Of a stretch of 64,000 nucleotides of DNA, positions 10,751-35,879 are shown in pieces. A program made the translations under genes and the position numbers. The DNA is from Bispira polyomma (lineage: Eukaryota). The notes under the pieces are model-generated. The model was not told the origin of the DNA, searched no databases, and saw only the letters and a program-made list of their open reading frames with translations. Positions within the stretch are counted from its first letter, which is position 1, and every line of letters begins with the position of its first letter. The DNA is taken from assembly GCA_965649765.1 (NCBI GenBank), contig OZ287756.1, positions 50,344,001 through 50,408,000 of the forward strand, written 5' to 3'.

Positions 10751-11423
10751 TAAGTTTCTTTTAAAATGACTTGGTTGCAGGTGTAGTATGTTAAATGTGA
10801 TTTATCAGGTCATTATCTTTAGTCCAGGTAATGTCGAGTCTGCTATAGGCAACTGTTAGTGCTATAATTTATGTTCTATTGTATAGACGAATACATCTTG
10901 ATATTACAGTATGTTTCTGTAACAAACTAATTTTAAATTATTTTGTACAATGTTCGCCATTTTACAGATATGAATTTAGTTGCGGTTTATGTTGCTTTCA
11001 ACAGCTTGGTTCTCATTACAATGGCCGGATTTGATGGTTAGAGTAACCAGTTTCAAAATACTGTAAAACACCAACCAATGCCAGGTGCCTTACAGGGTTT
11101 CTCAGATGAGGGAGTGAACAAGATTTAAACCAACATTGGTGAGAGACCAATGATTAATGGCACGCGCTTCTAACCACACCTGCCAAAATAATTTTTTTAG
11201 TGCATATAACATGCGTTGGAGGCATGTTATGAAGACATAACATTTGCAAGGGGGGGGGGGGGGGGGGAAATAGAAAAACAACCTTCCAGGGAAAGACTCT
11301 TTCCATTCCTTTATTTTACTGCTGTCAGTTCTTGCAGTGGTTTCTCCGCCCACCGCTTGAATATGTAATATATAAATAATTACAAAAAGACATACCCGTG
11401 TATATATAATATCTTTTTTTATT

Positions 11424-12722
11424 ATGTGCCGTCACCAATTTTTTGACTTGCAAAATACCGTTTACAAGCAAGCCGCTTTTGCATTAGACCACGATGAAAG
11501 AGAAGGAAGTAACAGTTCTCACCCGGCCACCAGAGGAACTATTTTACATAAGTATAACGGTGACATTTTAAATGAAAATGCGGTAGGTATGTACAACCCC
11601 CCAAAACTGAAAAGTATTAACCCCGGCAGAGTTTTTGCACCACGCGCACCATATTTTAGCTGTCGACCCGATGGGGTTATGGTGCTCGATTCCATGTATG
11701 CGGAAGAAGATTTTGCAAGTTATGCTCTGGATAAGATGAGTAAGTTAGGCCACGTCACAAATAACCAACATGGGGAAGAACAATTTATCCACGATTGTTC
11801 TGTAAACCAATATACACCGGGGGTACCATACTTTATAAATGAAATTAAATCTGCACAAACCGATCAGGCTGTATTATGTCGCGATCTTCAAGCAGAGATT
11901 ATGGTCTCCCTAGATGACACATTGGTCGAGTACGCGTCGGAAGCAACCGATCATAGAGATGTGTCTTGCGTTATATTTGATGGGGATGAAAATCCAGCGA
12001 CGCGTAAAATACTATTATCTTATCTTGACAAGGCTTTTAGTCGGGCCAACTGGTGGGGAAACAAAAAAAATAAAGACGGTTCTATTAATATAGAACGAAC
12101 CAAAAGAATGACTATTAATGGAACGGTTCATTCGAAAGAAGAGTACAGCAGGTTTTTTATTCAGGCCTGTAAGATTGCGCCCACTGAGGTAATGGAAGAC
12201 GCACTAAAGACGATCCCTATGAAGAAGGAGTTGTGGAAGAAAGGCTCTTCTATGTTTAGAGAGGGGGATACAATTTGGGAAAACATGGATACCTTAAGAT
12301 CCACACTCGGAGGGAAGTGTTGCATCACTTTGTATGACCCCAAGAATAGGTATAAAAATATACCCCGTTATAAAATGAAGCTAGCGGCCTCCCCCTATAC
12401 ATTGGGTTTAAATTCTCTATTCAGAAGCACCACCCTTCTACAGGCCCTCTGTTACCGACATTTAAACCACAGCATGAGATATTTGTTTACGGCCGTTTTT
12501 TGTTTAAAAAATGTAAACCCAAAAAAGCAGGACCACGCCATGGCTTTTCAAGTGACTTGGGATCTGTGTTACAACGATCAATTGTTGGACAATGTTCTCA
12601 TAAACAACGCCGAGAAAATCAAGCTTATATCTGCGAGGAATATTGCACCGATTTTGGTAGACAAGAAGTCTTTATGTATAAGGAGCGGGGTGAATTTGCG
12701 GTGTCCTCCAAAACAAAGATAA
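11424..12722 (+). CDS. PD-(D/E)xK nuclease of the YqaJ/lambda-exonuclease/viral alkaline nuclease type, 432 aa (possibly 5'-truncated)
   Basis: HPATRG, PGRVF..PYFSCRPDG and NEIKS motifs in the expected order; late Q..CY motif (LLQALCY). Confidence 0.6.
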   Translation: MCRHQFFDLQNTVYKQAAFALDHDEREGSNSSHPATRGTILHKYNGDILNENAVGMYNPPKLKSINPGRVFAPRAPYFSCRPDGVMVLDSMYAEEDFASYALDKMSKLGHVTNNQHGEEQFIHDCSVNQYTPGVPYFINEIKSAQTDQAVLCRDLQAEIMVSLDDTLVEYASEATDHRDVSCVIFDGDENPATRKILLSYLDKAFSRANWWGNKKNKDGSINIERTKRMTINGTVHSKEEYSRFFIQACKIAPTEVMEDALKTIPMKKELWKKGSSMFREGDTIWENMDTLRSTLGGKCCITLYDPKNRYKNIPRYKMKLAASPYTLGLNSLFRSTTLLQALCYRHLNHSMRYLFTAVFCLKNVNPKKQDHAMAFQVTWDLCYNDQLLDNVLINNAEKIKLISARNIAPILVDKKSLCIRSGVNLRCPPKQR

Positions 12723-13395
12723 TACAAAAAACCTCAATGTGTGTTCCAGAAAGACTCAAACCTAAAACGAAGAGAAATATAACAAACATTTGTTTTTTTT
12801 TAAAGATGTACATAGCCGTGTTTTTTTGTTGTGAACAAAAAAAAAGTACTATATATATGTGTGTGTGTATAAAAAAAAAATACCATTCATTCATATAACC
12901 GAGTCTTCTTTTATGTTAACCAATGGAGACATTATTAATTTGTGTGAGAGCTCAAATAAAATCTTTGCTTCCTCATATTCTTGTTTGTTTGCTACCAATC
13001 CAAAAAAATTGGCCCCATAACATCACTCATCTTTAAAAGAAAGAATAAATAAAGTCTTTTTTTCGTTTTTTTGGCTCTTTTTTAATTTGAGATAAAAGGA
13101 GCTATTAAACAGCTGCTGAGAGCTCTTGGTTAGACAAAAAATGTATAGTGGTGCTGCTTTGTGGTGAAATCACTCGTTTTTTTGGGGGGATCATCCACAA
13201 TAAAGCCCTTTTTTTGTGTTAGTGATGAGCTATAATGTTCGTTCTCAATTGTTTTAAGAAGAAAACCGGGTCTGACCACCTGTTAAGGTTTTCGACTTCA
13301 GTTCTAATAGACACATGTCCTATTTTAGGTTCGAGACCTTTTTTGTTAAAAAAAAAATGGAATTTGTTCTTTTAAAAAAAGTTGTATGACGGGTA

Positions 13396-13480
13396 TTGTA
13401 AATGAACCCGTAGCCAAAAACCAAAATAAGGGTCTACACATTATATGGTGTGTCTTGGTGTCTTGATTGTCTTGATTTTC

Positions 13481-13529
<49 letters not shown>

Positions 13530-13625
13530 TCTAGAAAAAAAACAAGACATTCAGGACACCAAGACACCACACATAATGTGTGGAACCTTATTTTGCTTTT
13601 TGGCTACGGGTTAATTTTTACAACC
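13396..13625. repeat. Imperfect palindrome (~90-bp arms) centred on (AT)~20
   Basis: ACCCGTAGCCAAAAACCAAAATAAGGGTCTACACATTAT...TCTTGGTGTCTTGATTGTCTTG at 13406-13474 is inverted at ~13540-13611. Confidence 0.9.
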
Positions 13626-14045
13626 GCACACAAAACACCTAACGGATCAATTAAGGTACTTGAAGAATTATAGTTTTTTTGGGGGTAACCGTACTCTTAC
13701 TTCTGTTTGTTTCATTAAGGGGTAGTCGATTTATACCATAAGATTTCTTTTGTAGTAGAATTTGTGGTTTTAATATATAACCGAGCAACATATGAATAAA
13801 AAAAATGTTATACTCATAAATTTGTTTTTGTTCAATGCTATTATTCCCCATAAAGGATGAAGGTTAAAAAACAAAACAATTCGAATGCATGCCTCGAGTA
13901 GGCAAAAATAAAAACAGTAATAAAATAATTATATTAAAATCCGTAAGATTTACATTTATTGAGTCACAAAAAATTGTACAAACATTAATATCTGTATGAA
14001 AACCGTGGCTATTAAATGTTTTTTTTGTAACCTAAAAAAAGAATA

Positions 14046-14906
14046 TTAAAAGGGTCCTTCTTTAAGATTCTGGATGTTTTTAACGAGCGCATCACACTTT
14101 TGTTTGAATGTCTGATCTGGTTTGAAATGAAGACACCTAAGTTTCATCATCCACATGTTTTGCCGCATCAAGCTATCAACCCCGCTGTTTACTGTCCCAT
14201 CCTTGTTTGGTGTACACCACTTCCAAGTTCTCTTACATATTACTGTAGAACGTTGAAGCGTTTCCTCTTCTTCATCCTCTGAATCATCGGGTAGTCCGTC
14301 CACATAATCTTGATCCACTATACTGATTACAGAAAGTCCGTGGTGTATTCCATAGGTGTTTAGTAGATGGTCAAAATGAGTGCTTTCTTTTGGGTAGGCT
14401 GATTTTAGATTACGAAGGTGAAATATGTCAATGGGTACCACGATGTAGAGGGCCCAGGGATGTTTGCGGTGCATCAATTCCGCTTTGACTTTAATCTCAA
14501 AAGATGTGATCATCCTCTCAAACAATTGTTCAAAGTTCCTCGGTTCAATAGGGTTATCGTCGTACTCGGACAGATGCATATAAACGTTATCCAATTCACT
14601 ATTTATGTTTAAACTATATTGTAAAGCCGGTAATGCTCGCGATGTTGTAAGCTCGCTGTAGCCATTTAGAATAACAACTCTTGTGGGAATTACTGCTAAG
14701 TTTTGTATTTTTAGTTGCGCCTCTGGTGCTTGCACGTCAGTACTTGGATGCGGTCTTTTAACACGCAGCAGCAATTTTGGAGTCCCCGGCGGATAAGGAC
14801 CAGTGGTTGCTGGTATTCTTGTTTGCACACCTAAACTGTGTGCCTTCATTGGTTTTAAAGTCATCAACACCTTTGGGTAATGTGGGTTTTTTCCACCCAA
14901 ATCCAT
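14046..14906 (-). CDS. Hypothetical virus-like protein, 286 aa (paralogue of 18190-18866)
   Basis: Intact ATG-to-TAA ORF with downstream AATAAA; aligns by eye with the 18190 ORF. Confidence 0.75.
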   Translation of the reverse strand: MDLGGKNPHYPKVLMTLKPMKAHSLGVQTRIPATTGPYPPGTPKLLLRVKRPHPSTDVQAPEAQLKIQNLAVIPTRVVILNGYSELTTSRALPALQYSLNINSELDNVYMHLSEYDDNPIEPRNFEQLFERMITSFEIKVKAELMHRKHPWALYIVVPIDIFHLRNLKSAYPKESTHFDHLLNTYGIHHGLSVISIVDQDYVDGLPDDSEDEEEETLQRSTVICKRTWKWCTPNKDGTVNSGVDSLMRQNMWMMKLRCLHFKPDQTFKQKCDALVKNIQNLKEGPF

Positions 14907-14945
14907 GTTTTTTTTTTAAAAAAAATATGTCACGTTCACTTTTTT

Positions 14946-15209
14946 ACATATAATGTGTAGACCCTTATTTTGGTTTTCGGCTACGGTTTCATCCTATAAC
15001 CACGACAGAAGGTCAATAAAATTCTTTGACGAGCACCATAAATAGAACCGAAGATATAAAATAATAGATTCCTTCGGCTCTTTCGATATACCACGATGGT
15101 AGGTAACTTAAGTTCTATTACGGGTTCTCTAAGGAAACCGTAGCCGAAAACCAAAATAGGGGTCTACACATTATATGTGGTGTCTTGGTGTCTTGATTGT
15201 CTTGTTTTT
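14946..15209. repeat. Inverted pair of the same motif around a ~145-bp spacer (MITE-like or hr-like)
   Basis: ACATATAATGTGTAGACCCTTATTTTGGTTTTCGGCTACGGTTTC (14946-14990) is inverted at 15134-15178 and extends as GGTGTCTTGGTGTCTTGATTGTCTTGTTTTTC to ~15210. Confidence 0.9.
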
Positions 15210-18187
15210 CATAATTTTTTCTCAACACCTATTTTGGTAGACTCTGCCATCATCATAAGACCTAATTTTTTTGTAGCTTTAAACCCGCCTCCAAAAACTG
15301 CAGACCAGTCACTTTTTGGCAGGCTGTAACTGGGAACCGTGGTGCATATGATGGTGTCGTCTAACATCAACACCGACACACCCTTGCTCCATAACTCTTT
15401 TTGGTTTTTTTTAAGAGACCAGTTAATATAATCGTTATTTTGAATAGCCACCCCCGAGTAAGCTTTAAACATCTCTTCCATATGTGCATTCACAAAAGGT
15501 CCATTACCGCCTTTATTAAAACCCATTCTCTGTAACATTTTGGTCACTATAGTATGATTATTTCCACCCAGCAAGGCGATCTTTTGTACGGCCGGTTTAA
15601 ATTGAGAATACTTGGCTTCTCTTTCAATGGTGTATTTAAACAAGTCATAGTACCAACAATCATAAAATATAATCTCTAATGATTTGGTACTAAATAGATT
15701 TTTATCTATTTCCAATATCAAATTGTTTAACTGAACCATTAACACACTCAAGGTTAATCTTATTTCACCTCCTTCCAGAGTACTACACGTTATGAAGGGA
15801 TCCGACTTATTTTCACCCCATTCAAGCTTCTTTTTTGTTGGGTCGTAGGAGATGTAAGCCGACAAATTCTTATGGATATCTAAATATCTCTTTAAAAAAA
15901 AAGCTCGTTTAAAATTTGGGGAATCCGATCTCACATCTATGTATTTGTTTCTAAAGACTCGTGCTATGTCTTGAACGAAAGACATACCGTCTTCGGCCGT
16001 TTTATACATCTGAGGGTCTTTTAGTGTTTGCTCGGTTTTGACCAATCCAAAGGCGAAGTAATTTAAAAATTCTAAATAAATCAAATTTTTAGCACCCACT
16101 GGAAAAGCACCCATCGAAAAGATGTTATTGGCGAGGAGTGTCTTAAAATTGTATTTGATTTCTAAAAAACACGGTTTTTCCCAAGCTCGTTTCGCGGTTT
16201 TGGAACCACAGTTTAATGTTTTTGATTTGTTGGTGTAATCCGCTAAGATATGTTGTATCAATTCGTGTAAGTTCATTTTTTTCGTTTTTCCTTTCCAATA
16301 ATAAAAGGACAGTCTCGATAATGGCCCATACCCCTTACCGTCCCCTTTGTCTTTAGGACGCAGTCTTATATTTTGGTCTAGGGGTGCCATTGAATCGGTA
16401 TCCGCCATACATATTTGGCCAGCCACCCTCGATTGGGTAAACCATTCACAAGCTAGCCTATTTTGTTCTCGGGCTATATGAGTAATGGTACCCCCGACTA
16501 CTTTGGATAGGCAAGAGTATACCCCAAAGATACTGTTATTGTTTTTTTTCATGGCTTGCTGTAAGGCGTCGTACAGAGCATAAGTGGGACTTGATTTGTT
16601 CGATCCCATTTGTTTTTTAAAAGCAGTTCTTCTGTCGCTCCACAAAGCACACATTTGATTCGCCACGGCTTTAAAATAACTTTCTCTCATGTAATAGGCC
16701 CTGTAGAATATTTTGTGGTATTTTAGCATCCAGTCTCTAAAATTTAAATGATTTTTTTGAGAATGTTCTGCTCCTTTATAGCATACATCCGGCCGAGTAT
16801 TTGGGACATCCACCACATAATACTGGTCTGGTTTTAACTGGGTGAGGGCAAATTCTTCACTCACCAGACTAGTCAGACATATATTCATGGCTTGCATAAG
16901 AGAGGGATACTGCGCATTAAAATCATCCAATCCGCTAGTAAAATCAGAGTACAAACCTTCTACGTTACTAATAGTTCTACCGGCTCTAGATTGTAAAGCA
17001 TTAAAATAATCGTTTTGTAAATCACCCTTACTATTGGAATAGAAATTGGTATTTTTGTTTTTCTCTTCTAGATCTAGATCACTCGTACCCGTAACGTCTT
17101 CTTCTAACATCTTATAAAATTGTTCTTTTTCATAAGGGGTAGCAATTTCTTCTAAGGTAAAAACTTTTGTTTTCTTTTTCTACTCTGATCCTTTCTTCCG
17201 GTGTTTGGGCGTCTCTCAGAGCGATTCTAATATCCGTGCAACATTCCCCATAGGCACAACAACCCGACACGTCTTCCGGATTGTATTTAGTTCCCGGGAC
17301 ATAAGCTCCCTCGTACCATACATTGTTGGCTGGAACCGAACAAATGTTTCTTCTTCACATAAAAGCATACATCAGATTTAACGTCATTTTCATCCCGTCT
17401 CCCCCAATAGCTTTGCGCACGGGAGCAAATTGAGAATCCGCATCCATTATACAACTGAGGGGGCACATTTGTTGTAAATCTAATAGGGCGGTGATAATAG
17501 TATCCGCCACGTTGTAGGCCACGAATTTATGGATACAGCCCGTTCTCCATGTTGCCGTCAAATTAGCATAATCCACGTCTTGGTCGTGTATTTTTCTGAC
17601 ACCCAGGTGCAATCGAGCACTGCAATCTAACGTCTTATTTCTCGGTTCTGGATCGTTAAGTAGCTGCTGGGGAATAGGTACTTTATCCATAACGTCTCTA
17701 TTTCCCATAAAATTAAACAAGTATGTCTCTACTTCTCTAGATCCTTCTAGGGGTTTGATAACCAAGGTACGGGTATCTAGTTCTTCTTCTTCTTCAGCAT
17801 TGTATAGATCTTCGTTGGTTTTCATCTGATCCAGGCTTTTGATATATTTTTCCTGCCAGCCAGTTTTTGGTCCGCAACGGTATTTCCTTTTTTCCGAGAA
17901 TATTTAATAACGCACGCGTCCGGTCTATATCCAAACTGTAGAGAAAGCTTCGTCCTACGCCTGTCTCTAAACCACGAGGGGTCATTCTCTTTACTTTTTA
18001 CACTCGCTCCTTTGGCTCCCGTGGTTTCTAAACCATGATTTAACATGAGTAAATCGAACTTGGTACCGTTGTAATGGGTTAAAAATTCTGCACCCGTTAA
18101 AGCAAAATAATCCATAAAGCTTTCTATCATTTTTTTTTGGTCCGTAAATTGAAGTAACCTATATCTCTCTTCAAAAGGAGAGGCCAC
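15209..18187 (-). pseudogene. polB: Family-B DNA polymerase of a large DNA virus; frameshifted and 5'-truncated
   Basis: ExoII THYNGTKFD (17822-18187), ExoIII AYNVADT (17355-17825), then DFNAQYPS, KKNNNSIFG and MADTDS (15209-17110) in canonical order. Confidence 0.85.
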
Positions 18188-18189
18188 CT

Positions 18190-18866
18190 TTGGAATATCC
18201 TAAACTAGAAGAAATAACAATCAACTGTACCAGACCACAGCAGACCACTATCATTCATGGTCTTAGTGAATTAACCCAACGAGAGTCTTTACCTCATTTA
18301 AAGAAAGCACTCTGTCAGGATGGAAAAAGAGATACGGTCGGATACTTCATCCATATAACAGGAGCTCGCAACGGGGATCTAGAGCAAGTTTTTGAAAGGT
18401 TGAAGGGAGCTTTTGAAAGAAAAACTGAAACTCATTTCAAGCGCTTCCAACTCCAGTGGGAGCTATTCTTTGTGGTACCCGTTGACATATTCTGGATAAA
18501 CCCAAAAGAATATCGGTGTCCAAGTAAGAAGATTGAAGAATTCGTTGGTGCATTAGAAAAAGGTGGAATAGATACCGTGTCAATGATTAACGTGCTAGAC
18601 CCCAACTACCACAAGATGAGTACGCGCATGAAATAGCTGGGCTAAAACGACAGGAAAGCATAAAAAGGTGTCTGGGTTCTCAGCCGTACCACCGTAGAGA
18701 AGATAGTACTAGAACAGGGTGTGCGAGAGCGGACAAGCTTTTTACTGACCACAGCTTCATAAGCAGCTTGAGGTGTTGCCACTTGTCAAAGATAGGAGTC
18801 GAAAGCGCGTCGAGGAAACTGGTGAAGGTCATCAACGCCCTTGAGCCCCAAACCGACGAGATGTAA
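18190..18866 (+). pseudogene. Paralogue of the 286-aa protein; 5'-truncated, one frameshift near 18620
   Basis: IIHGLSELT..SLP/LEQVFER/WELFFVVPVDIF versus ILNGYSELT..ALP/FEQLFER/WALYIVVPIDIF; the shifted frame gives SLRCCHL...KLVKVINAL versus KLRCLHF...ALVKNIQNL. Confidence 0.75.
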
Positions 18867-18883
18867 AAAAAAGATGGTGTCAT

Positions 18884-19216
18884 TTGACTGACTTAAAAAT
18901 GTTCTACTATGAACTAATTGAATGTATAATTAAAGTGTTGGTAAATTTTTCAAAAGACTTAAAAAAATTGAGCGTTAATATACTGAACGAGACTCATGTG
19001 TACGCCTCTAAAGCCGATGAACTATTAGCAAAGGCAACCGACTTCAAAGATTTGCAGCTAGCAGACATTAATGGTTTGGCGGATAGCCTTGGTTCTTTAA
19101 GTTTCTTAACCGATACACCGGCAGAGCTCGGTATAGCGGGTGTATCAATTTTTATGATTGTAGCAGGCGTCAATTTTGGATTGGTTTTATATACTTGTAT
19201 TAGATCAAGAACTTAA
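18884..19216 (+). CDS. Small or partial protein with a C-terminal transmembrane helix (possible envelope-protein tail)
   Basis: Helical segment, then LGIAGVSIFMIVAGVNFGLVLYTCI and a short basic tail RSRT. Confidence 0.4.
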   Translation: MTDLKMFYYELIECIIKVLVNFSKDLKKLSVNILNETHVYASKADELLAKATDFKDLQLADINGLADSLGSLSFLTDTPAELGIAGVSIFMIVAGVNFGLVLYTCIRSRT

Positions 19217-19550
19217 GAAAAATCTGACTGTATAAAATCTAGTAAAAAAAGAAAAACGATGTCTATATCATACTTAATATTGTTGTAATATCTTGTACCA
19301 TAACAGGTTTTAAAAGACTGATTTTTTTTGTAATCTTTTTATGCATGTTAATCATCTCGTGTTCATTTTAGTTGGGTTGTCACTCTTTTTTTAAAAAAAA
19401 AAACAAAAACTAGCTAGAAATCTGTTCGGGTCAAGAGGGTTTTTTTTCAAAAAAAGAGTTCTGGTCCTTTTGTTGCCCAAAATAGCCCGCAATAGCATTT
19501 TGGTAACTAGCTAGTGAAGCGGGTGTATATATATATATATACATGTAGAA

Positions 19551-19623
19551 AAATGAAAAACAAGACAATCAAGACACCAAGACACTACATATAATGTGTA
19601 GACCCTCATTTTGGTTTTGGTTC
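19551..19623. repeat. Fifth copy of the dispersed viral-block motif, next to (AT)8
   Basis: AAAATGAAAAACAAGACAATCAAGACACCAAGACACTACATATAATGTGTAGACCCTCATTTTGGTTTTGG. Confidence 0.9.
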
Positions 19624-21715
19624 ATAAGAAAGACCCGATAGGATCGAGCCTCACTGGAAGCGGGTAGTTTTAAAGTAAAACATGATTTATTGTCATCTTA
19701 AAGATTACGGGAACCACTGTAACTGCTAAAAAAAATAAGAGGGTTTTTGGCAGGAGGGAGTGGCTTAGAGTGTGTCTAGTATAACTGGTAAACAAAAAGT
19801 ACAGGAAATATATACTGGAGGGGGGGGGGGGAGGGGTCAACAAACTATGGGTTGGTGGAGCCTGTATCAATGCACTGGCACTTTTTGAGACCACCATTTA
19901 GTAAATTGAATGCCATCCCAGTACTAGCTAGTTTGATGGGCTTAGTTGTTTTTTCTGTTCAATATTTGGTTAAATGCTGCATTAGAACTATTTACCTATT
20001 ATTGAGTTTTTAAATAAAAGAAGATATATTTTAACTCTACAATAAGGTCTTTAAATCTTTGAATTGAGTGTTCAGAAATACAGCCAAGTGTCCATTTCAT
20101 ACCAAGCATGACCGTAAAAGGCTCTTGCAAAACTATGAGGACTTTAGTTGTGATCTCTATACAATGAACAGCTACATCAGTCAAACATTTGAATATAGGT
20201 GTCTCTATTTTAAACTTGATGGTATAACGAAGGTCACCACAGAAAAATTCTTATCTGACACTTATAGGACAACAAAGCAAGGATGCAAGTATATTTGACA
20301 ATACCATCATAAGCAATTTCAAAACCGTCTTCGAAATGTGGTAAAATACTCTCAAGAGGAAAAGTGGTTCAGGTAGACCTCACAGAATGTTTTTTCAGTG
20401 AAAAAAATTGCAGCCTGGAGAAACAAGTGTCACCATTTTACCTGCATTTTGCAAGAAACATTACTTAGAAAGCAGGGGGATTTGGGAATATAGTATAACC
20501 TCTGTTATTTAAAGAGATTTCTAATGTAATTTATTCACACAATAAATTTTGCATCTATCGAAGAAATATTTGGTTTGTAAAAATGACCAAATATCCTGGT
20601 ATAATTCTTTATCCCCTGCCAAAGATGTTGAAGGGATACAGGAATTGTCATGGTCCATAAGTCTGCTGTACCATAATTTGCTAATTACAAATGATAAGTC
20701 TATATTTGGGTAAATTATGACTATATGAAGTAGCAACTTAATGGGTTGTGTGCATCAGTCTTTTTTATTCAGGGAAGATTGCCAGGATACGCAGTGGTAA
20801 GCCCTAAAAGACTACATTTTGGTTTCCACAAGTGGCAGTGATTACATATGTGGCATATGTTTTTAGATCTTACACAGTGTCAGATTTGTTCTTGATTATT
20901 GATGTATAGCATAAAAACGATTGGTAGGGTAGTTGTTTTTTTTGTTTGAAACTCACTTACATTAAGCAGGTGATAACAAATATGTGAATTTGCTTGTTTG
21001 TTTGGATGCCTTTGTTTTGTGTAGTTGGCAAACATGGGATATATAGGGCATCTTGTTAATTCTTCCTAACATTAAATATGTGGAAAACAGAAGCTAGATA
21101 ATATAGCTTGTGTTAAGACGATTTTGTTGAAAATACAATGATGTACTATTATCCTTTAAAATATCTTGCCAATATTTTGTATTGATACATGAACATATGA
21201 TTCCATCCAACTTTCTGCAAGTTTCTGTATTCACAGATTTGCATTTGGTACAGTTAAGTAAATCAGTATCTAATTAAAAGAAGATTTTTGAATCAAACTT
21301 TCATATCAGATTAAGAAGGGAGGGTATAAATAGACTCCAGAGGGTGTAGAGGGCCTTACAAACTGCCGACAAAATGACACAACACTACAGTGGATGATAT
21401 GCAACTTAACGACAGTGATATACACAACAAACAGAACACCACACTACATAATCCACATAAAGAATACATCACCACGGCAAAGAGGGGGGAAGTATAAGAC
21501 AATAGAAGAATTAATCAATCTAGGCGATGACACAATGTGTTGTAGAGATCTCTCCAAGTTAAATTGCATTGTCGTGTAGTGGAGTGTCATGCAGGGAACA
21601 CTTGGGGATACAGATCTGGCTAACCTTTATACATCATCTTGTTTTTATTTTAATGTAGTGTTGTGTCATGTAGTTAGCAGTCTATAAGGCCCATAAATGA
21701 TGTTCTCTCAAATTT

Positions 21716-22150: not shown

Positions 22151-22202
22151 TTAAAACTTATAAAACAAACCTATTTCCTTTAAATAATTAAAAATAATAT
22201 AT
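22151..22202 (-). pseudogene. Displaced last codons of LINE ORF2 (IIFNYLKEIGLFYKF*)
   Basis: In frame with ...LKELLHTNVY at ~39970 once the piggyBac and one ATAT are removed. Confidence 0.85.
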
Positions 22203-25083
22203 CCTTTAGAGTGCCAAAATGTAATTTGCCGTGTTTTTTTTTCGATTGCCGTAATGCGGAAGACCTAACTCTGTTGGACTGCCGAACCGTAATTTGCGTA
22301 TAAAATTCCAGCTTTAGACAACGCCACATGTTTATTCTGCAGGAGTGCCAAACCGTAATTTGCGGATGTTTTTTCAGTTATTTGAAGCGCGGTATGTAAG
22401 TACAGGCCAAGAGCCGTTTTAGTTTTTTTGTAGCTATTTATTTATGATAAAACAAAGTGAGAAACATTCCTGTGCTACATATTTTAAAGGGTGGCAAGTA
22501 TTGATTATTTTTTGTCTGCCATCTCGTAATATTATGTTCATTTAACACAGAAAAGGACCTTTAGAAAAGGCCCATATTATCGCCCACTGTGTAGGCACCA
22601 TATAAACATCTTGTTAGACATGAATGTATACATTCTTTCGTCAAATTAAACATGTTATCTGTTACTAAAATAGTATGTAAGTATCTTTCTTAAATCCAAT
22701 AAAAATAAAATTTAAATGCTGCTGAGATTTTACGTAAGAAATACATCCACTAAATTACACATTGGCGCTGACAGGTTCCTACATTTCCAATGTTGTCTCC
22801 ATGTGTCGATTAGGGCCGTTATTCTAAAAATAATTGCCGATTATTCACTCATAACTCAGAAATTACTGAAGTTAAAAATAACATGAAAATATTCCGAGAA
22901 AGCTTACTTTATTGCGATTAGTTTGGTTTTTGTTGTATCAAAATCTGTCGAGAAATGGCCGAGATATTTAAGTTTAAATACAGGTACCCATTTGCAGATA
23001 AATAGTTGAATACGTCAAAATAACCTTGAAATAAAAGACAAGCCCATTAGTTTATTAATATTCTATTTCCATCATTTATTCTACTGTTCTATAAGACAAA
23101 TCCTTCTTAAATATTGTCTTAATAAACTTATTTGTCTCAGCCATTTGTTAATGGATTTTTATTAACATTGCCTTTGAAATAATATACTTCGATTTTTTTC
23201 TTCATTGATTGTCAGGGACCAATTTACATATATTTATTTCTATATACTTGGAGCCAAATCCCTGTGGAGTAAAACCTCTTGCAAGATACCCTACCTATTT
23301 TATCACTGTGTACCAATTATCGCTACCCAAATTGTAACTTTTTTATGTGATTAGATTCCTGAAAAGAAATTTATCAGACAAAAATGTTTACTGCCCTGCT
23401 TCCTATTATCGACAGGTATCAATTATCGCCAGCCTAAATTTTAAACCAAATTCTTTGTTGCCAAAACAGCCCTGTTTTCATTGATGTGTGGCTGTTAGCG
23501 ACAGAGTGGTTAACATAAACCATACTTCACAAATCTGAAAACGGCACATGTAACATACAAAAAGAACCTTCCAAAGTTGTTTGCGGTTATATTGGTAATA
23601 AATAACAGCCGTATACAGTGTTATAACTTGTGGCCAAGCTAAAAGCAATTGTTTAAAAATATATCATCATTTAAAAATATTTCTGTATCTCGCTTTGTAT
23701 ACATAATTGTAAATTGTCGTGTCAGATTTGTTAACTTCTGTCCCTCGCCATGCATATCAACAGTAAAAATCAAAGCATCGTCAAGGACAGACAAATTGCT
23801 CTATATAAATTTAAACTATTATAAAATGGCAAATAGTATCTCCTAAGTCTGAAAAAATTTGGCGTAGCTTTTGCTGTGTATTGTAAAAGATCAGCTACAA
23901 TTAAATGGGAGTGATTGAATTGGTACATGGTGATAGGTGGTACATGGCAGTAAATAGTATACATTATAATAATTTACATTCATATAGTTTAACAGATTGG
24001 TTCATTAATAAGTTCATTCTGGGTAACAAAATTCTCCAGTGGGTTAGACCGGTTTTCTGTCCCATCACAGGATGATTTTATTTTACTGATAGTAAGCATC
24101 ATGAGTGACAGAATTGTTAACTAGCGAATCCTTGTTAATGTGTAAGAACAATAAAAATGCCAGAAATAACACCCTAAAATCAAGAATTGGTTAGTAGAAA
24201 CTACATGTACATGGAATTGAAGATAAATGAAAATAAATGACAATATCAAAATTTTTGTGAACCATTTTAGTCCATATTTGTAAGTATCAAAAATGAATGC
24301 AATTATTATACACATCTTGAATGAAAATGTAAAAGTGTATGTTTCAGACAGTTAATGCTTGGAAAAGAACTGGTGTGGATCTGTGGCCAGATGAGGCGAT
24401 TTGTCTGGATAACGCACCATTTACTGACTGAACACTACTGCCCATCAGCATTGACTACTGATTATTGCAACCCCAAATTTAAATCATTACATTAAATGTG
24501 AGTAGCTTCTGAACATTTTATTTCTGAGTGTCGGTAATTGGTAGCCAACAATAATTTGTAGCATGGAAGTACCAGGAAAGTTTTTTCACTCAATTAAATA
24601 AACTAAAAACAAGTTTGCCAGAGTTAATAAGTTACGGCGGATTTACAGCATGGTCCATGTGTTGTACATTATATTCCAGGAATTATTCTAGATTACGATT
24701 GTCTGTATCCAAACAATTATGGGGCAATATGATGAGCCAACTAATTTTATGAAAAGTAACTTTTATGTATTTACGTATTGTGAATGAAATATATTCATTG
24801 GTAGGAAACTGTCAACTTATTATTTATTACTAAAATTAGTTGTATTTTCCCTGAGTGAAAATATTAGTGTATCATTTATACGCAGAAATGTGAAAAACAG
24901 TTACACACACTATGTTGATCTAACACGTACTACTTTGTATATGTACAAATCTCAATCCAGGTCCACAGATTAACCAGCTTGACAGAAAAGATTTGATTGG
25001 TCACAAGTTCTAATGGATTGTCACTTCAAATAATTGGACTACCAATTAAGGTAACATTTTGAATGTGTGTGCAACTAATGAAG

Positions 25084-25240
25084 CAGGGGCCATATTCACA
25101 AACAGTCTTAGTCTTAAGCTTAACATTTATGTCTAAAATATTTGATGGATTTGTGTTAAGAGCAATGTTTATGCAAACCAAAGACCTGTTCTTACTGTCC
25201 CTATACTTAAGACTAAGACCGTTTGTTAATACGGCCCCTG
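25084..25240. mobile_element. MITE (PIF/Harbinger-like TIR)
   Basis: CAGGGGCCATATTCACAAACAGTCTTAGTCTTAAG ... CTTAAGACTAAGACCGTTTGTTAATACGGCCCCTG. Confidence 0.8.
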
Positions 25241-25324
25241 CTTCATTAGTTAATAATAACATAACATACTTGAACCTAATCATTTGTATTGTTGTCAGTA
25301 CAGTTTACATTCAAAACTATCTAT

Positions 25325-25832
25325 GTAGAGTCATTTTTCGTTTGGGAATCCGTACTGATGTCACACCATACCTTAAGAAACTTCTCTGGCTTCCTATTCA
25401 CCATCGAATCCTGTTTAAAATGCATGTAACCATTTTTAAAGCTGTTGTCTCTCAACAGCCTCACTACCTCACTACTAAGCTTTCCTTCAGCAGCCTTCCA
25501 AGGGGAAAAAGACTCTGTTTTCTTTAAAACACCCACCAAGAGGGTTGGATTTAAAGCCTTCTTGGTCGCCGCCCCTATGTTATGGAACAGTCTTCCAGTT
25601 GAACTCAGACTGCTCGATACACTTTCTGGTTTTAGGAAAAGGCTTAAAACCTATCTCTTCAGCCTCGCCTATCCGCCGTAGTCCTCTTCCTGGGCGCTGA
25701 CGCATCCATCCTTACGACCTGGCTATGTTTTTCATTATTCTTTTGGCTGATTGATTCTGATATTGCGCCTTAGAAGATGCCTAGCAACAATAACGCGCAT
25801 TAAAAATATACAATACAATACAAAAAATACAA
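25325..25832 (+). mobile_element. 5'-truncated L2/CR1-group LINE 3' end
   Basis: VTPYLKKLLWLPIHHRILFK and AFLVAAPMLWNSLPVELR...FRKRLKTYLF; (CAATA)n tail at ~25808-25832. Confidence 0.85.
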
Positions 25833-27246
25833 TGTATGGTAGATATTTTGACAATCAAATTGTGATGCAAATTTTTAAGTTCTGGGTTTATTAATCTGTA
25901 TTTTATAAATTTCCTCATTTGTTTTAAAAGTTATTTTTAAAATGTATAGCCAATGGTTTAGAACAAGATATCATCAAGACTGTGCTCTATTTATGGCAAT
26001 TTTCACTTTAATATGGCACTTGCCATTCGTAATACATGCACTATCAGCCGACACTAAAATATGTGTTATATTTTTAAGGATGAGAGTCCCAAAAATTAAA
26101 AACAGTTTAGCCATTGACCTGGATAGGTAAGAATTGGTATTGTATTTTGTTTAATATTTTTACACTCTTTATTTGTGAGAGGTATCTTCTAAAACCACAA
26201 CAACTAAATCAATAAACCAATCATGTGTCCTACAATATAGCCTGGGTCGTCACCAGTTAGCAATGATGTTTACATCTTGCCCAAGCATGTTATATCCCAC
26301 CAATGAACCTAGTGACATTAGCAGGATTAAAACTAGGGATCTTTCAATCATCAGATAAACTCCTTTAATCTAGAATCGAACCGGGGACCTTCCGATCACT
26401 AGACCAATTCCCTAACCAGTAATCTACTGTGCACCAATTTATGCATAAGTTTTAACAGATCATGCTTCACTGTCTGTTGTTAGTCCAGATTAATTTTATC
26501 AATTCCATTGACAATGTACTGTTGTCATGAATAATGAAAAAGTTATATTGTATAAATTGTTGTTGCACTGCATTTTATTCTAACAATATGATACTACAGA
26601 AAAAGTCTATTTATCTGAACGATGCTAAAGACATCAATTTTGGTCTGACAAACGGAATGTTTGTATGTTATTTTTGCTATCGGCAGTTTGACCCGGTTCC
26701 TAGAATCTTCCATTGTCGCCCCAGCCTCTTACAGCATGATAACAATATTCCATCCCAAAATACATTCAAACCTACCTTATACAAGTGGCGAGTGGCTGGT
26801 GTTTTACTATAATCCTTTCATTCAACAATTGGCCATTGTTTTGGTGGAAAAGACTGACAGCCTCTTGATGAATAGGTTGATTAAAATTCGCTTTTGTAAC
26901 ACAAATAAATGCTTTTAAATTAAAAAATATATATATACTTACATAGAAAATGATACTTGTTTTCTAGTGCTTTGTGTTATGAAATTTAACCCTCTGATAG
27001 AATATTGAATAAAATCCCTGATTATTGCCCACAGAACCGTTTTTATGAGACAAATGTTTTAAAAGTTGGGGGACATCGGTTTGGTTAAACTAGATTTACG
27101 GATGAATGGAGGTTGTATAAACAAGATTCTTCTGTACTCTTATTTAAGCTACTTAAGTTACTTTAAAATCCACAGCATAGGGTGAATAAGGTTGTTTAGA
27201 CTGATTATTTTATGATTGATGCCAAACTATAATGTTAATATTTCAG

Positions 27247-30200
27247 GACTGCATGCTTTTCTAATGAAAAACTTGATTCAGTGGCACAAAGTTTATTACC
27301 AGAGGAATATGGTCATCTGATTCCAGTTAAATGTACTGGCGATGGAAACTGTCTGTACAATGCCATGTCCATATTAATTTCTGGTAAATTAATAGTTAAG
27401 TAATTTTTTATGTTAGCTAGTGTGATGTTTAATGTCAGTATTGTTGCTGCCTTTATTAATTCTGCCATATGTTATTGTTTGGACTTGCCTGTATTTGTGT
27501 GTAGCAGAAAAACTGATTTTTTTTTCATGTGGAACAATTATATCAATATTCTATTATCAAACATAACAACGTTTCTGCTGTTGACAGGTGTCTCGCTTGT
27601 CTCATAGCATCCATTTCTGTTGCCCAAATATTTATCAAACATTTTAATCAAGGTCTGTAACTACAAAATTTAATATACTTGTACATTATTACTTATGTCA
27701 CAGCCATTCATGGCTATCCGTCAATCAGATGATGCATTTTTCTTGCCTGAGACTGAACCTCTGGAAATACACATAGATTTAGCCACTGTGGCCTAGTGGT
27801 TAACATACTCATTTAGGAACACAGAGGAGCTGGGTTTGATCCTAGTATGGGTTGACCAGATACACAAAGATACATAGTGGCTCAGATGACCACTCAAATG
27901 ACAGTCCTCTGTCATTAGGGCCTATCCCCAGTGGCAGGCTACAGATCCTTTTAGATGTTGATAAATTGTCACCCCAAGCCTCACACTTCAGGTAGGCGAA
28001 TGGTAGTTAACTGATGCTGGTTGGCTGTTTGCAGTCAAAAATAGGTTAATTAGTGCTTTGACTACCAGATAAAAGCATATAACTGTACTGAGTATCAATT
28101 TGAATAGAATAAAATATTTGCATTAGGAGCTTCTATCCTATAAGGCATACTACAGTATTCATATTTTGAAGTGTGAGTGTAAAGATTTACCACACATAAT
28201 TTGACTTCCTTTGGCCTTGAAGAAATTGCATGTTCATACACAGTACCTAACTCTATGTTTGGCATATTAACGGCTATTATATTAAGATTGAAAAAGGTTT
28301 TGTGAAATAATATTTACATATGGGAATAATTTGAGATGCTTTGGAGCTAAAATTTGAGTTTAGTTTCATTGTAAGTTTGGTATTTTGTCTTTACCTAAAG
28401 TCTATATATGGGCTATAGGTATTTTTTTCCCCGTACAACCAGATAGGCGGCCATCCAGGCAGCGTATGCTTATGTTTGTTTGGGCTAGTTCTTAGAAACC
28501 GAAGTAAGTTTATATTTAGTACAAGTATTTTTAGGGGGTTGTAGTTATGCAATGTCATGGTCTGATTTCACCCAAAGGCTGGGGGTTTGACATCCTTACG
28601 CTATTTTTTTTTTACAAAATTCAATATTCTTTATCATAACATAATTGTGTCATTTAAAATCATGTACTAATTGCCTGACTGGTAATCTGTCTTAGGTGAT
28701 GAATCCCTCAGTGACTACCTTCGCAAAGAGAGTTCAAAAGAACTGCAAACAAACTCAGAGCATTATGCAAAATACATAAAATATCATATTGAGTGTAACA
28801 ACCAAAATGGTGTTTTTGATGATGAAACATTGTTTCATTCAATGCTTTCGGAAGACACAGTAAAGATATATGAAAATGTGAAGAAAGACAAAATAAAACT
28901 GCTACAAATTGAAGTTGATCTATCCATAGTTTCTGGAAGGTGGAGTACGTTTATCAACTTATTCCCCTTGAGCACAGTTTCCAGAAGGAATTTATGTTCA
29001 GTTTACCCAACCAAAAATCCACCATTAAGATCGGTCTACAATTCTACCATAACCTCAAGGTGCAAGACTACACAACCTGATGCCCATATATTGTGGTCCA
29101 GAGATGGCATGTTAGAGAAGGGAATGTACACACCAAATCATTTTGTGCCTTTATTACCACTAACTCTACCAACAGTTTTAGATTTAGATGATAGTTTTGA
29201 TGAAATATTGTCTCAACTAGATTTGGCAAATGTGACAATGGATTCCTCAATCAGCCTGCTTACACCTGACATAAGTGTAAGTAACACTGATTTAGCCCAA
29301 CAGGACATGACCAACATTCATGAGGAAAATAACAAAATACAAAAACCTAATGAGGATCAAACTGTTCAACATGAACGCATCAATACTGGAGATGAGAGCT
29401 CTACAGAGGATCAAACTGTTCAACATGAACGCATTAAGACCCAAAATGAAAACTCTACTGAGGATCAACCTGTTCAACATGAACACATTAATACTGAAGA
29501 TGAAAGCTCTACTGAGGATCCAACTGTTCAACATGAACGCATTAATACTGAAGATGAAAGCTCTACTGAGGATCCAACTGTTCAACATGAACGCATTAAT
29601 ACTGAAGATGGTAGCTCTACTGAGCATCAAACTGTTCAACATGAACGCATCAGTACTGAAGATGAAAGCTCGAATGAGCATCAAACTGTTCAACATGAAC
29701 GCATCAATACTGAAGATGAAAACTCTACTGAGCATCAAACTGTTCAACATGAAAACATTATTACTCAAGATGAAGGCTCTACTGATGATCAAACTGTTCA
29801 ACATGAACACATCAATACTGAAGATGGTAGCTCTACTGAGGATGAACCTGTTCAACATAAACGCATTAATACACAAGATGCAAGTTCTACTGAGGATCAA
29901 AATGTTCAACATGAACGCATCAGTACCCAAAATGAAAACTCTACTGAGGATCCAACTGTTCAACTTGAACACATTAATGCTGAAGATGAAAGCTCGAATG
30001 AGCATCAAACTGTCCAGCATGAACGCATCAATACTCAAGATGAAAATTCTACTGAGCATCAAACTGTTCAACATGAACGCATTAATACTGAAGATGAAAG
30101 CTCTACTAAGGATCAAACTGTTCAACATGAACGCATCAGTACCCAAAATGAAAACTCTACTGAGCATCAAACTGTTCAACATGAAAACATTAATACTCAA

Positions 30201-33200
30201 GATGAAGGTTCTACTGATGATCAAACTGTTCAACATGAACACATCAATACTGAAGATGGTAACTCTACTGAGGATCAACCTGTTCAACATAAACGCATTA
30301 ATACACAAGATGCAAGTTCTACTGAGGATCAAAATGTTCAACATGAACCCATCAGTACCCAAAATGAAAACTCTACTGAGGATCCAACTGTTCAACATGA
30401 ACACATTAATACTGAAGATGAAAGCTCGAATGAGCATCAAACTGTTCAACATGAACGCATCAATACTGAAGATGAAAGTTCTACTGAGCATCAAACTGTT
30501 CAACATGAACGCATTAATACTGAAGATGAAAGTTCTACTGAGCATCAAACTGTTCAAGTTGAACGCATTAATATCCAAGATGAAAGTTCTACTGATGATC
30601 AAACTGTTCAACATAGATGCATTAATACCCAAGATGGAAGCTCTACTGATGATCAAACTGTTCAACATGAATGCATTAATACCCAAGATGAAAGCTATTC
30701 AGAGGATCAAACTATTCAACATGAACCCATTAATAACCAACATGAAAGTTCTACGGAAGATCCAATTGTTCAACTTAAACGCATTAATATCCAAGATGAA
30801 AGTTCTACTGATGATCAAACTGTTCAACATGAATGCAATAATACCCAAGATGAAAGCTCTACTGAGGATCAAACTGTTCAACGTGAACGCAATAATACCA
30901 AAGATGAAAGTTCTACTGGTGATCCAACTGTTCAACATAAACGCTTTAATACCCAAGATGAAAGCTGTACTCGTTATCTAACTGTTCAACTGGAACGCAT
31001 TAATACTGTAGATGAATGCTCTACTGATGATCAAACTCTTCAAGATGGATGCATCAATGCCCAAAATGAAAACTTTACTGAGGTTAAACGGCTCAAAAAG
31101 AAAAGGATCAGTATCCAAGATACTAAAACCAAGAAAAAGCTGTTTAAAAGTGTTACAAAATCAGTAAGAAATAATTGTAACACAAAGGTTAAAGAAAATA
31201 AATATATCAATGTTGCAAGTGTTTTTAAGAAAGGCCAAAAAAGACAAATATCTGAAAATGATTGTAGTTTAGATATATTGGCAAAGGCATTAAAGAGGAA
31301 AAAAACTATATTAAATGACACAAGAAATGGTCTAGAATCATCTGACAATGACTCAGACATTAGCTTGGACTCTGATATTGAATGTGTTCAATCAGATGAT
31401 GATGATGATCCAGCTGAAACATTTACAGACAGCCTGACATGGAAAAGTAAATGTTTTCCAATGAAAAAGCCCAAATTTGCTGGTCCGGCTCCAGGAGTGA
31501 GCAAAGATTTTGTTTTGGATAAGGATGCAAAAGAATTAGACTTTTTTTTCAGTTTTTTTCCAGAAGCAATGCTTTCTGAAATGGCCAAAAATGCAAATAA
31601 GTATGTACCAATCTACAGTACATTGCATTCCAAATTATCAGATGACCCATACATTGACAAGGACTTCAAACCTATAACAGAAAGTGATATCAGAGCTTTC
31701 TTTACCTGCAGGATGGTGATGGGGGTAACAAAACTACCTCATACTGATGATTATTGGTCCACAGATCCAGCCATGAGGAATAATTATATCAGCAGAATAT
31801 TGTCACGAAGCAAGTATAGGCAAGTAAACCGCTACTTCCACATTAATGATCCTACAAAAGACCCTGCACGGTTAACCAACAGAAAGGCCAAAACTGAAGG
31901 TATGGCCAATGATCCACTGTATAAAATTCGCCCATTGCTTGACAGCATCAGAGCACAATGTTTGAAGTTATATAATCTGAATCAGGAAATATCAGTTGAT
32001 GAGGCAATGATTAAGTTCCATGGTCAACATTTTGGCACTATCGGAGCACCACATAAACCCGCCAAACGAGGGTTTTGCATCTTTGCATTAGCTGATGGGC
32101 ACAATGGTTACTTTTCCAACTTTGAGGTATACCTTAGAAAAAAAGAAAAAGAAGTGGGTCTCACTACTCGTGTTGTAGAAGACCTGGCAAGACCATTCTA
32201 CAACAGGCAACATATAATTTTTGTGGACAAATTCTATACGTCAACGAATTTAGCATTGTCATTATTAAATAAAGGGACCCAGTTAAATGGATCATTTAAC
32301 AAAGCCCGTAAAAATTGGCCAGAGGATTTGAAGCCAAACTGCAGTGTCCGAAAGAAGGTTGATCCTGTCAGAACATTGGAAAGAGGGCAGTGCATATACA
32401 GACAGACAGAAAACGGAAAGCTAGTAGCATGCATATGGAAAGATTCTTCCTTGGTCTACAACCTAAACACATGCTACAATATCAATGTGAAGATCACAAA
32501 TGTTAAAAGAAAGACCAGGTTAAATGGAGCATGGATTGTGGATGATCTCCCCTGTCCTGAACCCATCAAAGAGTTTAACAGATTTATGGGGGGAGTAGAC
32601 CAACATGACCACCTGAGAAGTAGTTACACTGTTCAAAGAAAAGCAAAAAAGTGGTGGCATTATTTTGCCTGGTTTGCGATTGACATATCGTTGATCAATG
32701 CATATATACTATGGAAGCTGACCCACAAAGGGACTCACAAAACTTTCAGTTAGAGGTGATTTTGAAATATAAGTTGAATTTTGTTTATCTGTTTGACTTC
32801 TTTGCTTGTTACACTGTCTTGCAGGAAATTTTGAAATTTATTTATTTTTGGTTTATTATTTTTGTTTCTGTTTTTACAATTTCAAACATGCATAGCCAAA
32901 TACAGTTTACAAGTTATTTTGTCATCTTTTTCTTCAGAAATGGTGTCTTATAAAGATTGCAGAGCTGGGGCCATATTCGCAAAAGGGATCAGTGAAAGTG
33001 AAAAATTTGAAAACAAAAATTGGCTGAGCAAAAGATGAGCGAACAATAAGCTCAAATGTTTAGATCAGATCAAATTTGGTATTCACTTTAAAGTTGAGTT
33101 GATTTTTCACTCATCTTACAATACTAAATATTGCTTGAAATTTGTTATATAAGCTATTATATGTCTTTATAATCGTTTGTCCAGCCAAAATAAAGCCTAG

Positions 33201-34765: not shown

Positions 34766-35090
34766 GTTAAATAAAATGCCAGAACATGAAATAATAATTG
34801 GGCCTTAGTTGTAAAGTTAAAAATTTTAAAAATGTATTTCGGCTGTTTAGTATGTTTAAGTGATGTTATCAACGAGTTTTGCCTTAGAAAGGTAGGTGAA
34901 ACTCGTTAATGTAGTGGTTTTTGATCGGTAGGACAGTATTGTTACCTAATTTGTTTTCATTTTTGGAGCTGATTTCGGTCTAATATACATCTTTTAGGGC
35001 AAAAATAATGCACCTGTTTAGATATTTGCAAAATGTACTTTATTTTTCTTTAATAATTGAAGGTTTACCAGTGTGACCTACCTGGATAAC

Positions 35091-35699: not shown

Positions 35700-35879
35700 A
35701 ACCAGTAATTAATGCTTGTTCCTGTTGTTTATTACCATTTACGTGCATGCGCACAGGTCACGAAAGCACATCTCGTTTGTTATGTTTGGTATTATCGCCT
35801 GCATTCTCGCCAACATTGCTCATGTCAAAAAAACAAATTTCATAATATTTAACATAAACTTATTTTTAAGCCTGAAACT

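Follow-up and report, generated by a model that had tools for sequence, protein, structure and literature searches.

The locus discussed here raises the question of why one motif recurs among herpesvirus-like genes in the genome of Bispira polyomma. In the window, the whole 64,000-nt stretch that was analysed, the first-pass annotation had located five copies of a ~75-bp motif, and had offered three explanations: an origin-type element of the virus, the termini of gene-sized viral segments, or the TIRs of a transposon. The first is the best-supported reading, with all full-length matches of the motif lying within herpes-like patches. On balance, the motif is likely to be part of a palindrome that represents the virus's own oriS-type origin, probably located at the long/short genome junctions, and occurring within malacoherpesvirus-like DNA only.

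The motif copies lie in a jumbled patch of malacoherpesvirus-like DNA with approximate limits at 11374..19645, and host repeats start on both sides. The patch is a jumbled EVE, in which viral fragments were reordered, truncated, joined in host DNA and inherited (two samples from one study). Its leftmost 70 nt match, at 97% identity, the 3' flank of one of the viral genes in another patch, C13. A presumed viral ORF of 432 aa (11424..12722, + strand) takes its first residues from another fragment, with the junction at 11444; no Pfam, homolog or PDB match was obtained for it, and its PDG and EIK motifs would fit a putative PD-(D/E)xK nuclease. A 286-aa ORF (14046..14906, − strand), for which no Pfam match was found, belongs to a small viral paralog family, with 87% nucleotide identity to a copy in the patch at C9:59.52 Mb and 28-32% identity to two paralogs.

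The long ORF that had been read as a family B DNA polymerase (PolB), ended by a TGA from the fourth motif copy, is a chimera of scrambled pieces. The stop (15209-15211, − strand) is indeed supplied by copy 4, but only the first ~341 of the 656 residues are PolB. The homology ends near 16157, inside the ORF, and the second half (15209..16156, − strand), presumably another viral gene, scores -6 bits against the PolB profile, on which left-out relatives score 329 and 398. No usable Atlas match was obtained for this half, nor for an ORF at C13. The PolB part (16157..18200, − strand) is an internal fragment in three frames which covers only profile positions 480-1079 of 1738, and both of its ends were lost at breaks without the motif. 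More PolB crumbs were identified in the patch at C9:59.5 Mb, to which a piggyBac fragment is joined with 2-nt microhomology. Caution is thus required with long ORFs in such patches, since they can be chimeras. The gene cassettes thought to be bracketed by inverted pairs of the motif dissolved into scrambled pieces as well, and the two that had been proposed would need opposite arm orientations.

The polymerase is closest to malacoherpes-type long PolBs, with Capitella ELT95180, Branchiostoma and Malaco herpesvirus 1/2/4 as named relatives, and a quick tree joined this polymerase to the rows of Capitella and MalacoHV1 with an SH-aLRT of 94, which is below the tool's star threshold. One C13 fragment gave a weak, consistent match to the herpes-type major capsid PF03122 (E 7.8e-6, 24.2 bits against a cut-off of 25). 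The terminase ATPase PF02499 was not matched, but the controls were silent too. No free genome of the source virus was found: PolB queries returned no related contig in viral_contigs, and the motif patterns had no match there or in metagenome_contigs. For this reason, we infer the native copy number and position of the palindrome. The same virus group is integrated in an invertebrate-type genome in the case of BelcheriHV-1, which is a near-complete provirus of ~150 kb, whereas ~51 kb of scrambled pieces are present here.

The whole window lies within one arm of an at least 140-kb, ~99% inverted duplication centred near 60765, and because of this duplication five further genomic motif matches represent only its mirror. 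Such a duplication could be a mis-joined haplotype, and the three sequencing runs share one study and may be the source of the assembly. However, short-read contigs from two samples cross internal joins (one spans 15183-19582) and both host borders (11024-11413, and 19556-20038 or 17077-19829), and the viral genes in the patches bear stops and frameshifts. An assembly artefact or a contaminating virus is therefore an extremely improbable explanation of the patch.

All five motif copies were recovered, with pairwise identities of 82-96% and BLAST E values of 1e-10 to 1e-29. Also confirmed were the threefold GTCTTG-type internal repeat, the (TA)20 run between the first two copies (13486-13526), and the absence of the motif from the rest of the window, where the next-best match is 23 nt long (E 0.014). 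Each copy is an arm of ~100-110 bp, longer than the ~75 bp first given by ~20 nt outward and by the inward extent to (TA)n, of a 216-237-bp imperfect, asymmetric palindrome centred on (TA)n. The outer end of each arm begins with a small spaced inverted repeat, here called the mini-repeat (13390, 13626, 15003 and 15121); a covarying hairpin at this place gained no support, with no covariation detected beyond shuffles. Rfam families were not found in the window.

The window's one complete palindrome consists of arm 1 (13390..13485, + strand) with a Y-type inner end, the (TA)20 centre (13486..13526) and arm 2 (13527..13626, − strand) with an X-type inner end, made up of a T tract, CTAGA and an A tract. 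Arm 3 (14946..15003, − strand) is broken in mid-core and stands back to back with arm 4 (15121..15222, + strand), separated from it by spacer B (15004..15120); arm 4, which carries the stop described above, is Y-type and broken ~5 nt before (TA)n. A (TA)8 run plus the Y-type arm 5 occupy 19526..19640 (− strand), with the partner arm missing and the break inside (TA)n. Arm 5 is not simply cut at 19623, but appears to continue to ~19640 after a 7-8-nt deletion, as judged by eye. The fold of 13381-13636 reached a z of -19 against 40 shuffles. Inverted arms around an AT-rich centre were present in 6/6 complete palindromes (fold z -16 to -22), and in each of them two unlike inner ends, X and Y, are joined; X-X or Y-Y joins were not found among the six. 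These unlike ends favour the palindrome as the unit over a TIR-bracketed cassette. Seven arms are solo, and five of these are broken within ~20 nt of (TA)n (p between 0.006 and 0.05, according to the null chosen), at positions spread over ~25 nt and not at one base.

At least 19 independent arms were identified in the 1.035-Gb genome, all of them in 51 kb of DNA in three malacoherpesvirus-like patches, with the mirror copy of the window set aside; these counts are lower bounds, since the genome searches score best candidates only. In the genome-wide BLASTN search, which had been suggested as a check, every full-length match fell in the three herpes-like patches, and all 18 matches were within these patches plus the mirror. 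Exact 16-mers were in viral patches in 7/8 cases (control 3) and pattern matches in 13/15 (control 0), while the three matches outside extend over 19-37 nt only; two diverged motif queries matched the same places only. By these searches, the motif is not a high-copy MITE end without a link to viral ORFs, which had been named as the outcome that would speak against a viral element.

This distribution bears on the proposal that the arms are TIRs of a (TA)n-targeting host transposon with captured viral genes. The arms do abut (TA)n, there is a piggyBac element 2.5 kb away from the window patch, and the junction at C9:59.5 Mb involves a piggyBac fragment. However, no arm occurs outside viral DNA, other long (TA)n runs of the window have no arm, five further copies of this piggyBac (20 kb examined for each) are without arm or viral ORF, and the divergence of the motif is in step with that of the viral genes. 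The scoring of TSDs revealed 1-3 nt in 6/6 cases, compared to 2.2 nt on average for 30 mismatched pairs, and thus none above control; a 2-nt TA/AT duplication is still compatible with this. Over 45 arm pairs, mean identity is 89% in the core, 60% in the mini-repeat zone and 38% in the outer flank, so that the outermost conservation typical of transposons is absent, and counting the (TA)n side as the outer end instead yields two end types. The transposon is largely refuted and highly improbable. Herpes genes near piggyBac recall Teratorn, the piggyBac-herpesvirus fusions. A Teratorn-like element was rejected, as the piggyBac here is self-contained (~16-18 kb) and 0/5 other loci have viral ORFs or arms.

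The anatomy of the motif is conserved in three diverged families. A second family, at C13, is ~50-60% identical in the core to the first, with its arms matching one another at 84-97%, and it keeps the outer mini-repeat, the A tract, the iterated repeats and (TA)n. It sits 5' of genes for 234 and 353 aa, and their paralogs of 228 and 326 aa (61% and 71%, respectively) lie beside a first-family palindrome; a search with the 326-aa ORF found no homologs. A second family with the same anatomy beside paralogous viral genes indicates that the motif belongs to the virus. The arm sequence is held under constraint relative to its flanks: between window and C13, one arm is 99% and spacer B 80% identical, the other adjoining arm being 91% identical.

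A viral element could also be a dispersed repeat of the viral genome, either hr-like, with origin and enhancer roles as in baculoviruses, or selfish and MITE-like as in pithoviruses, which would have spread by recombination or transposition inside the virus. This is suggested by at least six unrelated outer flanks in the first family, by the density of arms, by the tandem palindromes with adjoining paralogous gene families, and by a degenerate arm that stands alone between two divergent genes of C13. Baculovirus hrs and pithovirus M1/M2 are likewise multi-copy, imperfect intergenic palindromes in tandem clusters beside rearranged genes, as outlined in the relevant sections (PMC6669502, PMC10664404). 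However, the element described here is longer (~230 bp, against 30 bp for the AcMNPV hr palindromes in PMC6669502), (TA)n-centred and polar, and it is known from patches and not from an intact genome. The lack of TSDs above control, the low conservation of the outer ends and the presence of multi-gene viral blocks of 7-8 kb without the motif also speak against a dispersed repeat, which we regard as distinctly unlikely.

The layout at C13, with core genes, palindrome, spacer B, palindrome, a 5-kb cassette, and again palindrome and B, is relevant for the idea that each arm is the end of a viral segment with its own replication or packaging, or of a capture system, the segments being linked to one another at (TA)n. 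Here, spacer B separates two complete palindromes, and the patch can be parsed between (TA)n runs into a unit of 330 bp bounded by Y ends on both sides and one of 5.1 kb that holds two genes and is bounded by X ends. However, the parse is not constant, since the second family yields units with unlike ends, and the six palindromes lack the X-X or Y-Y joins. The PolB gene was cut on both sides at motif-free sites, and contig depth over the patch equals that of the host flank, with no amplified circles seen in two samples (depth being a weak measure). The segments are therefore very improbable, and as termini of gene-sized segments the motif is unsupported, with genes broken at motif-free sites and whole blocks free of it. 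There is no evidence here of a new capture system. In a broader version, the genome of this herpes-like lineage would be divided among several components, each with inverted arms of ~110 bp as caps; cutting and re-fusion would take place at (TA)n, and these ends would also drive host germ-line integration and gene shuffling. This version is improbable; if true, it would be a segment-and-junction system that was not found described for Herpesvirales in the literature searched. Telomeric arrays were not found near the C13 patch.

The motif may serve as a terminus or junction of herpes type. The main rival is a cleavage/packaging junction like the HSV 'a' sequence, where concatemers would be cleaved into unit genomes within or close to (TA)n. 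X and Y arms would be the two genome ends and complete palindromes their fusions, and the enrichment in integrated patches would follow from the ends being free. A head-to-tail fusion predicts hetero-armed palindromes, as found in all six, and the five solo arms ending near (TA)n and the C13 layout, like IRL-X-IRS with a repeated X, also point in this direction. However, the ~25-nt variation of the breaks does not reveal a precise cut, and a flank common to C13 and C9:59.5 Mb adjoins an X end at one locus but a Y end at the other. In VZV, moreover, a variable (TA)n belongs to the origin, and motifs like pac1/pac2 were not recognised here. The break pattern near (TA)n fits programmed cleavage as well as fragility, and on the whole a packaging junction appears unlikely.

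For an oriS-type origin, the comparison is with other herpesviruses, where the HSV origin boxes are much shorter than the arms seen here. As described in the cited sections, OriS of HSV-1 and VZV have inverted arms, an AT-rich or (TA)n centre, asymmetry and more than one copy per genome (PMC12543377, PMC4249134), features shared by the palindrome, which differs by arms of 100-110 bp, three iterated repeats, the outer mini-repeat and tandem double palindromes. The iterated repeats of both inverted arms would be the binding sites of an initiator, which would melt the (TA)n centre; a gene for a viral initiator or origin-binding protein was not identified. The viral DNA would have reached the germ line in fragments, which end joining then linked, and the palindrome would be over-represented because it was multi-copy in the virus and easily broken at (TA)n, being now a passive passenger in the host genome. 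Among first-family copies, six different gene-side flanks were counted; a genome with two junctions explains 4/6 of them, and the other two must be patchwork joins just outside the arm, or more viral sites.

Little is known so far about the signals that act in cis in the replication and packaging of invertebrate herpesviruses. For OsHV-1, one suspected stem-loop has been offered as such a signal, suspected to be an origin, in a genome with the layout TRL-UL-IRL-X-IRS-US-TRS, in the parts of the reports dealing with it (PMC9836095, bioRxiv 2024.08.13.607701, PMC12096621). By PolB, OsHV-1 belongs to the same virus group, and the C13 layout resembles, by the description in one of these sources, this arrangement with its duplicable X (bioRxiv 2024.08.13.607701), a short piece between inverted repeats beside a short component of 3.5-5 kb. 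However, the OsHV-1 repeats comprise 7.5-9.7 kb and the stem-loop is described as single, whereas ~110-bp arms recur here. Among the papers retrieved by the literature searches, none dealt with a repeated palindrome of this kind in malacoherpesviruses, though other publications may do so. With the fossil, a candidate element is available in three versions that have diverged, which allows conserved positions to be identified and searched for in other malacoherpes-like contigs.

A jumbled EVE has also been described for IHHNV in Penaeus monodon, where 9 kb of viral fragments are reordered, inverted and repeated, and where, in the portion of the report concerned, inverted-repeat units of the genome's terminal region are multiplied (PMC8982415). 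While IHHNV is a ~4-kb ssDNA virus with host flanking repeats, the source here was a large dsDNA virus, whose remains occupy three loci and include three or more motif families. The pattern of a jumbled EVE with multiplied inverted repeats, seen in a shrimp parvovirus, is thereby extended to large dsDNA viruses by one case.

The five motif copies that the first-pass annotation had placed among the viral genes of the window were found there by sequence comparison, and no further copy was identified in the window by BLAST, where the next-best match had an E value of 0.014. However, their extent had been drawn too narrowly, since an alignment of 19 arms, as the copies in their corrected extent (~100-110 bp) are termed here, placed the arm start ~20 nt outside the reported limits. 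In the same alignment, each arm opens on the outside with a small inverted repeat interrupted by a spacer; an A tract, a short core complementary to itself and a threefold iterated GTC(T/C)TG-type repeat follow, and a T-rich end abuts (TA)n on the inside. Two inverted arms and the (TA)n centre form palindromes of 216-237 bp, predicted to fold as a single long stem (z -16 to -22, with 40 dinucleotide shuffles per palindrome as reference). The inner arm ends are of two types, X and Y, and all six complete palindromes, from both families of the motif, pair one X end with one Y end, which corresponds to 1 in 64 under random independent joins, the joins not being fully independent.

It had been proposed that a high-copy motif lying away from viral ORFs would contradict a viral association. 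In the genome (1.035 Gb, 75 contigs), which is that of an animal judging from its repeats and 18S gene, BLAST instead gave 18 matches, all in viral patches and the mirror: five in the window, six at C13:34.56 Mb, two at C9:59.53 Mb and five in the mirror, the last group being a consequence of an inverted duplication, at least 140 kb in size, of which the window forms one arm. All counts from the BLAST, pattern, diverged-motif, profile and protein searches are lower bounds, since only the best candidates were scored. In two exact-pattern searches of the genome, 7 of 8 and 13 of 15 matches lay inside the patches or mirror, and similarity at the three matches elsewhere extends over only 19-37 nt. 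Among the best candidates, queries from two diverged motif versions matched only at the same loci, as did five viral protein queries, which provides a partial control for the loci having been found via the motif. A profile search of 272 kb revealed 24 strong arms; the 19 that remain once the mirror is set aside fall in ~51 kb of viral patches, the limits of which were drawn on the basis of ORFs and homology. If a ~200-kb viral genome carried eight arms, the expectation for 51 kb would be about two, compared with the 19 observed; either the patches are about ninefold enriched in the element, or the virus carries many more copies. A dispersed hr-like or MITE-like viral repeat is considered improbable.

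At C13, a second family was identified, with a core about 50-60% identical to the first, represented by a tandem pair of palindromes and one solitary arm. Its arms are 84-97% identical to each other, showing that the palindromic structure was preserved as the sequence diverged. The family is located 5' of a 234-aa and a 353-aa gene, which share 61% and 71% identity, respectively, with genes of 228 and 326 aa adjoining a first-family palindrome. Within the first family (45 pairs), mean identity is 89% in the core, 60% in the outer mini-repeat zone and 38% in the flank; between the window and C13, the same arm is 99% identical and the adjacent spacer 80%. From these comparisons, the motif is taken to belong to the virus. 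A tandem repeat of ~140-bp period beside one arm (L022:450-1150 and L026:7920-8070) is shared by the C13 and C9:59.5 Mb patches at 74-87% conservation.

For the polymerase fragment of the window, 54 relatives were identified, and among the 30 looked up, the clusters that bear the name of an organism or virus are Capitella ELT95180, Branchiostoma BRAFLDRAFT_105365 and Malaco herpesvirus 1, 2 and 4. The Capitella and lancelet sequences are treated as malacoherpes-like in PMC5552708. A quick polymerase tree agrees with this placement with moderate support, and the C13 patch contains a weak Herpes_MCP match. It is highly probable that the motif belongs to a virus and that the patch represents a jumbled endogenous viral element (EVE). 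Insertions of malacoherpes-like DNA and jumbled EVEs have been described before; a palindrome that is repeated, polar, centred on (TA)n and conserved across diverged malacoherpes-like sequences was not found in the openly accessible main texts searched.

The palindrome shares inverted arms, iterated sites and an AT-rich centre with HSV OriS; for VZV OriS, variable TA repeats and two copies are described (PMC12543377, PMC4249134), and a stem-loop of OsHV-1 is suspected as origin (PMC9836095, bioRxiv 2024.08.13.607701, PMC12096621). Because of these likenesses, a candidate oriS-type replication origin is the favoured reading, held with slightly better than even confidence. Against it count the six gene-side flanks, where a two-junction genome gives four, and the breakage of five of seven solo arms no more than ~20 nt from the (TA)n tract (p 0.006-0.05 across nulls). 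Such breaks would fit a viral cleavage junction and a fragile cruciform tip equally well, and the junction is a less likely but serious alternative; origin and junction roles are not mutually exclusive.

Read as terminal inverted repeats, the arms delimit units that have two X ends, two Y ends or one of each, varying by locus. The two inverted-repeat cassettes suggested before fail as units, as they require opposite arm orientations, and the proposed check for target site duplications yielded outer-end direct repeats of 1-3 nt, equal to 30 mismatched control pairs. A host element of this type is very improbable, and ends of true viral segments are unlikely. At C13, the core genes are followed by two palindromes with a 118-bp spacer between them, then by a 5-kb two-gene block, a third palindrome and a second start of the spacer, an arrangement that in miniature resembles the malacoherpes layout IRL-X-IRS-US-TRS with duplicable X (bioRxiv 2024.08.13.607701).

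Nor are the cassettes intact genes bracketed by the motif, since the genes are scrambled and broken at motif-free joins. In the 656-aa ORF annotated as PolB, the assignment holds for residues ~35-363, where alone all 54 relatives match; residues 346-656 scored -6 bits against the PolB profile, compared with 329 and 398 for the C-terminal parts of two left-out relatives. Of the 1738 profile positions, 480-1079 are represented in the window, and crumbs at C9:59.5 Mb match positions 131-181 and 391-439. At 11444, a motif-free join connects 70 nt from the flank of a C13 gene with a 432-aa ORF. The C9:59.5 Mb patch contains several duplicated and inverted pieces with motif-free joins, and a piggyBac fragment is joined to it, also motif-free, with 2-nt microhomology. 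A single short-read contig covers 15183-19582, others cross the host borders, and depth over the patch is similar to that of the host flank (two samples, one study, the runs of which may be the source of the assembly). Since contigs span joins and borders at host-like depth, the scrambling is a property of the DNA itself, and there is no sign of an amplified form; an artefact is scarcely credible. Among known cases, the jumbled IHHNV EVE, with multiplied terminal inverted-repeat units, comes nearest (PMC8982415). ORFs of 300-700 aa are still open, which suggests that the 6-13% divergence among arms is older than the integration.

The largest patch, about 33 kb (G000:C13:34550900-34585100, stretches L021-L024), lies ~25 kb from the contig end and contains a capsid gene split into six pieces, two further ORFs, one P-loop/dNK-like and one glycoprotein-like, and host repeats mid-patch; an 18S rRNA fragment directly adjoins it. 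A 264-aa ORF on the minus strand, 9 kb away (L020:1420-2211), gave no Pfam or Atlas match and is possibly, as a guess, an unrelated viral insert.

The inverted duplication (G000:C9:50334001-50474761, ~99% identity, window 1-64000 being one arm) is centred on a 78-nt spacer at window 60726-60803. Alleles of both arms are present in short-read contigs of two samples; it is either a true duplication or a mis-joined haplotype. At its centre, window 55679-62538 contains Polinton/Maverick-like genes: a BIR-domain IAP, a weak adenain-like protease, an rve integrase carrying a chromodomain and an ORF of 433 aa that resembles a capsid protein but has no Pfam match.

A piggyBac element of ~16-18 kb (window 22198-39972) encodes a 1303-aa transposase ORF containing a 54-bp tandem array, and the piece searched has about seven copies in the genome. 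One copy begins 2.5 kb from the window viral patch, and the fragment joined to the C9:59.53 Mb patch is internal and 500 bp long; piggyBac beside two viral patches would seldom arise by chance, which is suggestive of shared sink loci. Window 39950-44964 contains a broken LINE-type retroelement with ORFs which, from their translations, we take to be endonuclease, RT and RNase H-like.
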